Below, piece by piece: positions 12,599 to 15,500 of a DNA stretch of 64,000 bases; within the stretch, counting starts at the first letter, position 1; each line of letters begins with the position of its first letter. The translations under genes and the position numbers were made by a program. Source of the DNA: Schmidtea polychroa (lineage: Eukaryota); NCBI GenBank assembly GCA_044892525.1, contig CM097885.1:15378001-15442000 (forward strand), written 5' to 3'. The notes below the pieces were generated by a model. That model did no database searches and was not told where the DNA came from. It saw only the letters and a program-made list of their open reading frames with translations.

Positions 12599-15500
12599 AG
12601 TGAATAATTTTTTATTCTCTATCTAATATTAATGATTATTTTCTTTTAGTGAACGGATGCAGTTTATATAAATTTTGTATTGCCGAAAGTCATGAAGATG
12701 TGGAGAACTGTAAATCAGTTACATCATCATATTTCAAGATAAATGACTCTACCTTATCGGGTTACATATGTCCGGAATGTCTCATTATATCACCAGGTAG
12801 GTGGTTAATGTTTGTACGACAACACGGACACCATCTTAGAAGATTCGAAGAAACGAAGAGCAGGATGATCACTAAAAGTAATACTCTTTCTACTATTAAC
12901 AATTATTAATTTTTTATAGTACAACCGAAAATGAATACATCATACGATCCTAAGCAGATTAAAGAATATGTTACAAGTTATGTTATTTAAGTTGTTTAAT
13001 ATTAATTATAAATATAGTTAGACAAAACTCTGGCACCACAAAACGAAAGTCAATATTTTACGGAAATGGAGACTCTAACATACAATTGTGTCCACGTCGG
13101 GAGTCTGACTTAAATGGTTCTCGTGTTGAATTGACAAGCGATGTATCTGCAATTAATTCTCCTGACATTGTTGTTCCAGATTGTCTCATCAGAGAAATAG
13201 AAGATCATATTCAACGAATGGGTACAGTAAAAATCCAATTTGGACTTTGTGCAGAGTTTATCAAAGAGGATGGTGAAATTAAAAAATGGTGTTTGTCGAA
13301 TAAAGCAATTACAATGTCATCTTCATTTATTAATGATGGAATTGAAAAATTAAAAGAAAAGTTGGAGAAATACACTCAACAAAGTAGTGGGTGGAGAATT
13401 CATAAAATATTAGAAGTTACTATGATTTTAACTAAATTATCAGACATAATACATGTATCTGGTAAGTTTATTTACATTATTATATATATAAATCAAGATA
13501 TTTACTTAGGTTCAAGTTACATTAAAACGCCAAATTACCTGAAAAACTGCCAGGCTTTAGTTAATGTTCAAAATAATGATCAATTCTGCTTTTTATATAG
13601 CATACTGGCCGTATTACATTATGATGACATAAAACACCACAGAGAAAGAGTAATGAAATATAATTTAAGTGGTAATATATATTTATATCATTCTAAAAAT
13701 ATATATATATTTAGAGTTAAAATGGAAATCAGATTGGTTTCCAATGAAGTTGGTTAACATTTGCCAATTTGAGGCAATGAATCCTAATCTAGCGATCAAT
13801 GTTCTCAAATATAATAAAGATCCAATTAAACAAAAAACTAATGATATTTTCAAGAATCCGTTCGTTGACTTGGTATATAGAAGTACTTCGACGGGATGTC
13901 AATTATATCTCTTATTGATTGAAGAAGGTAATATTTCTTTTAATCATTAAAAATATTAACTAAATTTTAGAATTAAATTATCATTTTTTGGCTGTAACTA
14001 ATCTCGATCGACTGCTCAATTACAGAGATAGAGTAGAAGGAGTCAGAATCCAATCACATTGGTGTCATACGTGTCTTCATGGGTTTCAAAAACGTCCTGC
14101 TTTTGAAAGACATATAGGTCTTTGTAGGAAGAATGTGGAGCGGACGACTCTATACTCAATGCCAGAGAATAAATATATCGAATTTAAAGACTGGAGTAAA
14201 ACTATAAAACAGCAGTTTGTTGTCTACGCGGACTTTGAATCAATATTACCTCTAGATGACAAGCACTTCCAAAAACATGAGCCGATTGCATCTGAATTTG
14301 TGCTTCTTCATCAAGGTTGTCCGATTCGAAATGAAACATTTGTTGGGAAAAACTGTATCATTCAGTTTATACAAGCATTGGATGATATAGCTACAGACAT
14401 AGTTTATCCGTGGTATAAAATTAATGGATCGAAGGAAATGATGGAACTCACTTGGGAACAGCAGGAAGAATTTACGAATCAAACTCATTGCTACCTTTGT
14501 AAAAAGATTATCAATATACCTGTTCGGGATCATGATCATTTTACCGGTCAATATCTCGGAGCAGCGTGTCAAGATTGTAATTTGGCTAGAAGAATCAATC
14601 CGTCTTTACCTGTTGTATTTCATAATCTTCGTGGATATGACATTCATCATATATTAAAATATGCAATTGGAAAATTCCCCGATTGGAATTTAATTGTTAT
14701 TCCTCAATCAACAGAAAAGGTTCTCACACTTACAGCGACATCGAAAGGCAGAAGAATTAGATTCATTGATTCTTTACAATTTTTAAATAGCAGCTTGGCA
14801 AATTTATCAAAAAACTTGCCACGTCTTCCACTTACTTCAAAGATTTTCAATTCGCATTTAATAACTGGTAAAGGCATATTTCCTTATGATATGGCTACAT
14901 CAATGGATGTTTTACAGTCAATAACAGAATTACCACCGATTTGGGAGGGAGTTAGTCAAGAAGATTATATACATGCAAATCGAATCTGGCGACAATACAA
15001 CTGTGAGACACTGCAGGATTACATGCTAGTATATCTCAAGTTGGATGTTTTTCTGTTGGCCGATGTTTTTGAAGCTTTCAGAGAAAAAACATTTGACGAA
15101 GATGGACTTGAGGCTCTATCGTTTGTTTCCATACCCGGATTAAGTTGGGCATCAGCTATTAAACAGTTACCTGAACCAGTAGAACTTATTCAAGATCCAG
15201 AGCTTTACCGTTTATTTGAAGCTGGTATTCGTGGTGGAATGACATTTATCAACAAACATCATGTTGAAGCTGATGAATCAACACAAATGTCATACCTAGA
15301 TGTTAATAATTTATATGGATGGGCGCTGTCGCAAAAACTTCCTGTTGGTGAATTTAGATGGATAAATGATCAGACTGAAATGAATGGTATTGTTGAAAGA
15401 TGTGCAAATGGGGATAAGTTTGATGGAGATCTTGGATATGTTCTAGAGGTTGACATCGTCATTCCTGATAGTATACAAGATAAACTAGATGATTTACCTA

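Follow-up and report, generated by a model that had tools for sequence, protein, structure and literature searches.

The protein-primed DNA polymerase (PolB) gene of a palindromic Maverick derivative in the planarian Schmidtea polychroa is interrupted by six short segments that are very likely real introns, probably gained on the element's own branch, and the host spliceosome likely removes them to yield a 1236-residue polymerase whose start codon would exist only after splicing. The gene was analysed within a 64,000-nucleotide stretch of AT-rich DNA (the window; GenBank assembly GCA_044892525.1, contig CM097885.1, positions 15,378,001 to 15,442,000) from a genome of 781 Mb in four large contigs, where the palindrome is nested inside a full-length outer Maverick (Table 1). 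Named matches to a host gene in the window come solely from flatworms (Dicrocoelium, Schistocephalus) and, together with the AT-rich composition, fit a planarian-like host. The element likely depends on host splicing for its only enzyme.

Table 1. Features of the nested PolB gene, its mirror copy and the outer Maverick, in window positions
Feature	Positions	Strand	Description
Promoter (predicted Pol II)	12452..12575	+	two CCAAT boxes (ATTGG) in direct repeat; TATA ~12541; TCATTT 12570-12575
Exon 0 (predicted)	12572..12599	+	short 5' UTR ending in start-codon A (12599); 5' end predicted from promoter motifs
Intron 1	12600..12649	+	50 nt, phase 1; inside likely start codon
Exon 1	12650..12877	+	N-terminal Cys/His-rich (C2H2-like) domain
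Intron 2	12878..12919	+	42 nt, phase 1; at N-terminal domain end
Exon 2	12920..12976	+	linker, predicted disordered; without homology support
Intron 3	12977..13017	+	41 nt, phase 1; weak donor GTTATG, least secure boundary
Exon 3	13018..13461	+	remaining linker and entire terminal-protein (TP, D1) domain
Intron 4	13462..13509	+	48 nt, phase 1; TP/vOTU border; stop-free if retained here
Exon 4	13510..13671	+	vOTU domain with predicted catalytic Cys (residue 270)
Intron 5	13672..13714	+	43 nt, phase 1; TA run expanded in other copies
Exon 5	13715..13927	+	middle of vOTU domain
Intron 6	13928..13970	+	43 nt, phase 1; four codons before predicted catalytic His (373)
Exon 6	13971..16576	+	vOTU end, then exonuclease and polymerase region (PF03175); AATAAA at 16596
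Nested palindromic polymerase-only Maverick derivative	3812..17426	.	two ~6.5-kb mirror arms around satellite spacer
Mirror copy of PolB gene	4673..8647	-	same six introns
Mirror-copy introns 1-3	8597-8646, 8327-8368, 8229-8269	-	
Mirror-copy introns 4-6	7737-7784, 7532-7574, 7276-7318	-	
Outer full-length Maverick	1138..31194	.	own 6-bp target duplication
Outer PolB main exon	21674..25842	-	without introns 2-6 of nested gene
Outer PolB intron (predicted)	25843..27262	-	1420 nt, phase 1; inside first conserved Cys codon; sequence-inferred

Gene anatomy

All six segments have GT..AG ends and stand in phase 1, at the places and with the sizes (41-50 nt) claimed in the initial annotation, and the 1236-codon frame proposed there was likewise recovered, the seven joined exons amounting to 3711 nt, or 1236 codons and a stop. 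All six fall within the first 30% of the gene and are richer in AT (83-91%) than the exons (63-70%); the five internal exons are stop-free multiples of 3, and in each of exons 1-5 the spliced frame is the sole open one. Within 15 nt of the boundaries, the assigned GT..AG pair alone keeps the frame for introns 1, 2, 3 and 6, with two other frame-keeping pairs found for intron 4 and one for intron 5. Retention would bring in stops from introns 1, 2, 3 and 6 and a frame shift from intron 5, and intron 4 would be read through, frame-shifting length variants of the latter being common to several copies. The GT..AG ends, the T-rich 3' end and the conservation of the ends while the interior drifts are traits of U2-type introns. 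The proposed resemblance to host introns in size holds, but at the low edge: host actin introns measure 51 and 54 nt, the short-intron peak of planarian genes is given as 45-85 nt (PMC13594981), and four of the six introns are shorter than 45 nt. The polymerase itself matches PF03175 with an E value of 4e-31.

The start codon

Intron 1 likely splits the start codon, as had been suggested from the A|TG that its removal assembles. The resulting Met falls in the column occupied by the Met of intron-free relatives (P0010, P0015 and P0024), a stop lies nine codons upstream in the same register, and a TATA box and an initiator-like motif stand 58 and 29 nt upstream of the A at 12599. The three letters are intact in 34 of 35 scorable copies (the other 5 of 40 do not cover them), and in unspliced RNA the first six ATGs open only 4-21 codons. 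A metagenomic locus (L091) carries an intron-free PolB behind a compact TATA promoter with a similar TATA-to-ATG layout.

Splicing of introns 2-6 with a start elsewhere, in an unseen upstream exon, a trans-spliced leader or an in-frame ATG near 12808, would accord with the upstream coding leader exons used by the resident Maverick families, with the observation of a joined junction 1 in no contig and with a transcription start placed by motifs; set against the homologous Met column, the TATA box and the upstream stop, it appears improbable, and a start at 12808 would lose most of the conserved Cys/His domain. A flatworm spliced leader ends in AUG. Joined to the intron-1 acceptor, this AUG would be followed at once by TGA, and the leader was rejected as a source of the start codon.

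Protein domains and intron positions

Domain limits were taken from the predicted fold of an intron-free stand-in, the L091 protein, which is 42% identical over residues 4-400 (mean pLDDT 83). An N-terminal Cys/His domain (residues 1-77) is followed by a disordered linker, a little-finger-like domain at residues 128-237 (match to PolIV 4ir1, Z 8.7, rmsd 2.4, 92 aligned) and an OTU-like domain at residues 248-381, for which the scores are middling (Z 6.3-6.7; 3phu, Z 6.7, rmsd 4.1, 106 aligned) and the assignment is backed by several OTU hits and by retention of Cys270 and His373. On this model, the two are the TP and vOTU domains described in PMC11161782. The introns had been placed in a TP/vOTU-like region; both domains are found there in the stand-in fold, but no intron lies inside the TP domain, introns 1-3 preceding it, intron 4 falling where TP meets vOTU, and the last two introns lying inside the vOTU domain.

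Variation and selection among copies

Forty copies, picked for variety rather than at random and 93.6-99.8% identical, were aligned. Of the indels shared by at least two copies, 36 of 37 fall in the 267 intron bases as against the 1435 exon bases, a contrast that overstates selection because AT-rich intron runs slip easily. Such slippage leaves the codon pattern uninflated: in the spliced frame, pN/pS is 0.28 (45 synonymous and 42 nonsynonymous shared substitutions), compared with 2.05 and 1.59 in the other two frames, and the synonymous excess is significant for exons 3-6 taken one by one; for exons 1 and 2 alone, with few changes, it is not (p 0.41 and 0.63). Splice-site sets are intact in 215 of 222 scorable cases, each of the seven breaks being private to a single copy, and the intron interiors vary freely, with differences of tens of nt in intron 5 that reach ~180 in one copy. 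The 12 indels listed for the DNA-like run X7 fall without exception in introns; among them are frame-shifting changes of 1-2 nt in introns 2 and 4, whose lengths are multiples of three.

RNA evidence

Words of the gene occur in runs X1-X10, under four organism labels; none of these runs is recorded as RNA, and X1, X2 and X4 were taken for RNA on a guess. X5 and X6 yielded no contig that could be placed along the gene. One X1 contig reads 13 letters equal to 13913-13925, then AG, then exon 6, which is spliced junction 6, the last 15 nt of exon 5 being fused to exon 6 with only 13 loose letters. By exact pattern, intron-free junctions 1, 4 and 6 have no match in the genome, compared with 681 matches to the pattern spanning intron 6; no intron-free genomic paralogue that could be the source of the joined contig was found in this way, a diverged one being possible. 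Most X1 contigs are unspliced, wherever a long contig of X1, X2 or X4 spans intron 1, 2 or 3 the intron is still present, and among the listed joints of contigs from these runs none matches any intron and no skipped-exon form occurs. The result gives weak support and not proof, because read-through and antisense RNA from hundreds of insertions, or DNA in the runs, would look alike. No database protein spanning exon 4 was found, which is a weak test.

Over 12540-14060, A>G and T>C account for 30 of the 43 altered positions in X1 and for 10 of 38 in X7 (Fisher p 1e-4), some of them lying in low-depth contigs with many changes; the pattern looks like A-to-I editing of double-stranded RNA on both strands, the alternative being a strain difference. 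A 711-nt contig of X4 (organism B) has 4 differing places, for which a close species, a mislabel or a transfer are all possible.

Homology of the spliced chain and probable gain of the introns

Alignments were made with an X in the spliced chain at each junction. Residues 111-1216 align with the outer PolB (51%), as do residues 9-76 weakly. Collinearity with the outer gene had been claimed once introns 4-6 are removed; it is gap-free at junctions 4 and 6, but a 2-residue gap, present also in the closer relatives P0001 and P0002, lies near junction 5. The further claim that the outer gene has no intron there holds for these introns, but it probably has a 5' intron of its own. Metagenomic relatives agree at 57-63% over the last exon with frames continuous across the junctions, and the intron-free P0010 aligns to residues 2-400 with 44.5% identity (E 1e-109). 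Exon 1 aligns with P0010, P0002, P0015, P0020, P0024 and the outer PolB; the junction 4 codon encodes Gly in a column that is Gly in 17 of 17 other rows, and that of junction 5 Glu in a column of Glu or Asp in 15 of 17. The linker that holds introns 2 and 3 is poorly conserved, and their boundaries were set by frame, base composition and variation among copies rather than by homology.

A rapid maximum-likelihood tree was built from the last exon (49 rows, without bootstrap). The nested gene groups there with metagenomic relatives (SH-aLRT 98), the long ones having frames continuous across the junctions, and six resident full-length families fall in another clade (SH-aLRT 94). Given this placement and the intron-free relatives, the six introns are most simply read as gains on the branch of the nested element, a reading that we hold with good confidence; intron-bearing relatives may still exist elsewhere, since P0009, P0014 and P0016 begin after junction 6 and the tree lacks bootstrap values. 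A scan of viral contigs with P0002 gave no match.

Descent of intron 1 from the resident families was rejected, as these belong to a separate clade and have their acceptor in the Cys codon, three codons further 3'. An introner origin was also rejected, as the six introns show no clear similarity to one another (of 15 pairs tested, the best stood at 2 of 300 shuffles), and no terminal or boundary repeats shared among the six were found; an old eroded introner family is a possible source. Phase 1 is the phase of 42-48% of G- or AG-preceded sites in the nested gene, which under a G-before-intron bias gives six of six introns in phase 1 a post hoc p of 0.006-0.012, and G precedes the donor in only three of the six; coding-sequence context explains the shared phase only partly. 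A universal phase-1 rule for Maverick introns was rejected: the predicted short leader introns of resident families C and D are in phase 1, those of families B and E in phase 0 or untranslated.

A probable separate 5' intron in the resident Mavericks

The N-terminal motif of PolB was found in 18 of 20 fetched loci of the resident full-length families. In five families, including that of the outer element, the PolB frame has no Met before this motif, and in each family's representative it opens at an AG one base into the first conserved Cys codon, while 0.5-2 kb upstream an open exon ends in a T|GTAAG donor. As the phase-1 acceptor predicted for the outer gene recurs at the same position in the four other families, the outer and resident full-length PolBs are probably spliced too, at another site than the nested gene; lying three codons 3' of nested intron 1, the resident intron looks like a separate gain. 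Apparent low-complexity, Asn- or Asp-rich leader exons were seen in resident PolB genes (25843-27262; L102:1563-2480; L104, L108, L109, L111 and L121), and in families C and D neighbouring exon-intron units are alike, as if from tandem duplication.

A palindromic, polymerase-only element

The nested element measures 13.6 kb, has AGTAGT..ACTACT ends and is flanked by a 6-bp target duplication (3806-3811 and 17427-17432). Each arm carries the same PolB gene, and across the intron region the two copies agree at 100%. Between 3812 and 17426, only PolB pieces and short unassigned frames were found, with no gene for an integrase, ATPase, protease or capsid, and the + strand of the palindrome has no second long ORF besides PolB; the window's integrase, ATPase and protease genes are those of the outer Maverick. 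Inverted ends and a target duplication within 5-8 bp are Polinton/Maverick traits, and without integrase, packaging ATPase, protease and capsid genes of its own, the palindrome is classed as a Maverick derivative and not as a full member. Its domains and target duplications would be consistent with protein-primed replication and integrase-driven integration.

Own 6-bp duplications at 13 of 14 other paired palindrome loci, with flanks mostly unrelated among loci, indicate that the palindrome moves independently, and a fixed insertion site inside Mavericks was rejected on the same flanks. The 681 matches to the intron-6 pattern point to several hundred elements in the genome; recent insertions with exact duplications carry all six introns on both arms, and many copies are broken, with no frame reaching 800 codons in 11 of 20. 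At its centre (9334-11879), the palindrome contains 144-bp and 27-bp satellite arrays, and the spacing between arms varies by kilobases among loci. At two insertions (L036 and L040), the flanks match the element's own PolB or satellite, which suggests nested copies.

Proposed mechanism and rival explanations

The TATA and initiator-like motifs, the seven exons in one frame and the poly(A) signal are present in the sequence. From these, host Pol II would transcribe each arm outward, and the 41-50-nt introns would be recognised by intron definition. Splicing, glimpsed at one junction in one contig, would then build A|TG and a chain of Cys/His domain, TP, vOTU, exonuclease and polymerase, where unspliced RNA would offer only the short frames of its first ATGs. 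The polymerase would copy the element, with a full-length Maverick providing integrase in trans. The introns may persist because an element that replicates as DNA seldom loses them, and also because introns at the 5' end probably aid expression as a host-like transcript. A benefit of this kind is plausible by analogy with other organisms, namely the protection of intron-containing sequences against HUSH silencing described in human cells (PMC8770142) and the start-codon introns of Yarrowia; planarian PIWI is reported to repress Polintons (PMC8532177).

That the introns are spliced but confer no benefit, as neutral passengers of long nuclear residence whose phase reflects G-rich first codon positions and chance, supposes the same anatomy and differs only in the last step, persistence. 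The share of phase 1 among G- or AG-preceded sites, the freely varying interiors and the mixed phase of the resident leader introns are all compatible with it, but a G before the donor in half of the introns, a p of ~0.01 at best for six in one phase, the confinement of all six to the first 30% of the gene and the probable 5' PolB introns of a second lineage in the same genome make it somewhat unlikely. To regard the segments as AT-rich insertions in a decaying gene, with the last exon or nothing translated, would suit the mostly unspliced contigs and the short longest frames of 11 of 20 copies; it is scarcely credible when all six segments are GT..AG and their removal restores the frame, exons 3-5 are under purifying selection, recent insertions carry all six on both arms, and one junction was seen spliced.

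In-frame exon skipping, raised in the initial annotation, is arithmetically open to the internal exons, and regulated skipping might give a polymerase without TP (exon 3 out) or with a dead protease (exon 4 out). In its favour, exon 1 corresponds to the N-terminal domain, the TP is contained entirely in exon 3, and intron 4 falls in the linker between TP and vOTU; yet loss of exon 1 would remove the start codon, introns 5 and 6 cut the vOTU fold, and no skipped form was seen among the listed joints. Intron definition tends toward retention, not skipping. Introns this short favour intron definition (PMC13594981), and regulated skipping is given a low probability, even with TP and polymerase known as separate genes in adenoviruses and one coral polinton (PMC11161782). 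A wider conjecture, that the polymerase is a splice-controlled modular gene, with intron 1 as a switch and forms with and without TP, and that flatworm Mavericks handed PolB to the spliceosome twice independently, is equally doubtful; if true, RNA processing would re-create the TP/polymerase split that adenoviruses made at the level of genes.

Relation to known systems

The first codons of adenovirus E2B genes lie on an upstream exon. The E2B polymerase and preterminal protein, as described in PMC7851563, resemble the present case in that a related protein-primed polymerase is made from spliced RNA, but there the introns are long viral ones, leader exons are present, the TP is separate and the vOTU inactive, whereas the nested gene is fused and has short host-like introns. 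Polintons/Mavericks (animal adintoviruses; PMC11161782, PMC8502044) share with the nested element the TP-vOTU-exonuclease-palm order, PF03175, the retained predicted vOTU Cys and His, AG..CT ends and the 6-bp target duplication; unlike them, it has six PolB introns, no integrase, ATPase, protease or capsid gene, and inverted repeats of ~6.5 kb, compared with the 100-1500 bp given for Polintons in PMC10748475. The core genes of intact vertebrate and nematode Mavericks are described as intron-free (PMC8097293, 10.1101/2022.07.12.499685), a trait that the nested PolB does not share.

Introners within dinoflagellate Maverick/Polinton-like proviruses (PMC11957031) are likewise spliceosomal-type introns inside Polinton-like elements, but are reported as copies of intron-generating transposons; those of the nested gene are not clearly alike, share no terminal repeats, and are fixed in one gene under purifying selection. 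In Yarrowia, 42 introns have a donor right after the A, T or G of the start codon (PMC13309789), so that they too lie in or beside it, and that account ties them to efficient splicing and high expression; they belong to host genes, whereas the present intron interrupts a virus-like element's replication gene. In the literature searched, with supplements and Repbase (including its planarian Polinton entries) outside the search, no description was found of introns in an animal Polinton polymerase or of a palindromic polymerase-only family.

Since Maverick core genes are deemed intron-free and intactness is scored by long frames, spliced polymerases would be filed as dead, and recently mobile-looking copies in flatworm genomes and others like them would be overlooked. 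The nested gene offers a compact, polarised case of intron gain, with intron-free close relatives as the earlier state and hundreds of near-identical copies as the variation, and six one-phase gains at a 5' end pose a testable question on intron origin. The apparent phase-1 intron of the second lineage, within three codons of the same place, suggests repeated pressure toward a host-like mRNA.

The outer Maverick

The outer Maverick carries ATPase, integrase, protease, PolB, Bcl-2-like and TBP-like genes, the Bcl-2-like and short TBP-like genes lying at 27774-28232 (-) and 28893-29363 (+). The insertion point of the palindrome falls between the stop of an ORF (3182-3805) and the outer integrase's likely start; as the six duplicated bases (3806-3811 and 17427-17432) include the likely integrase ATG, neither flanking frame is broken. 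A weak Endonuclease VII-like match (PF02945), below the curated cut-off, falls inside the exonuclease region of both polymerases, at 14470-14590 of the window in the nested one.
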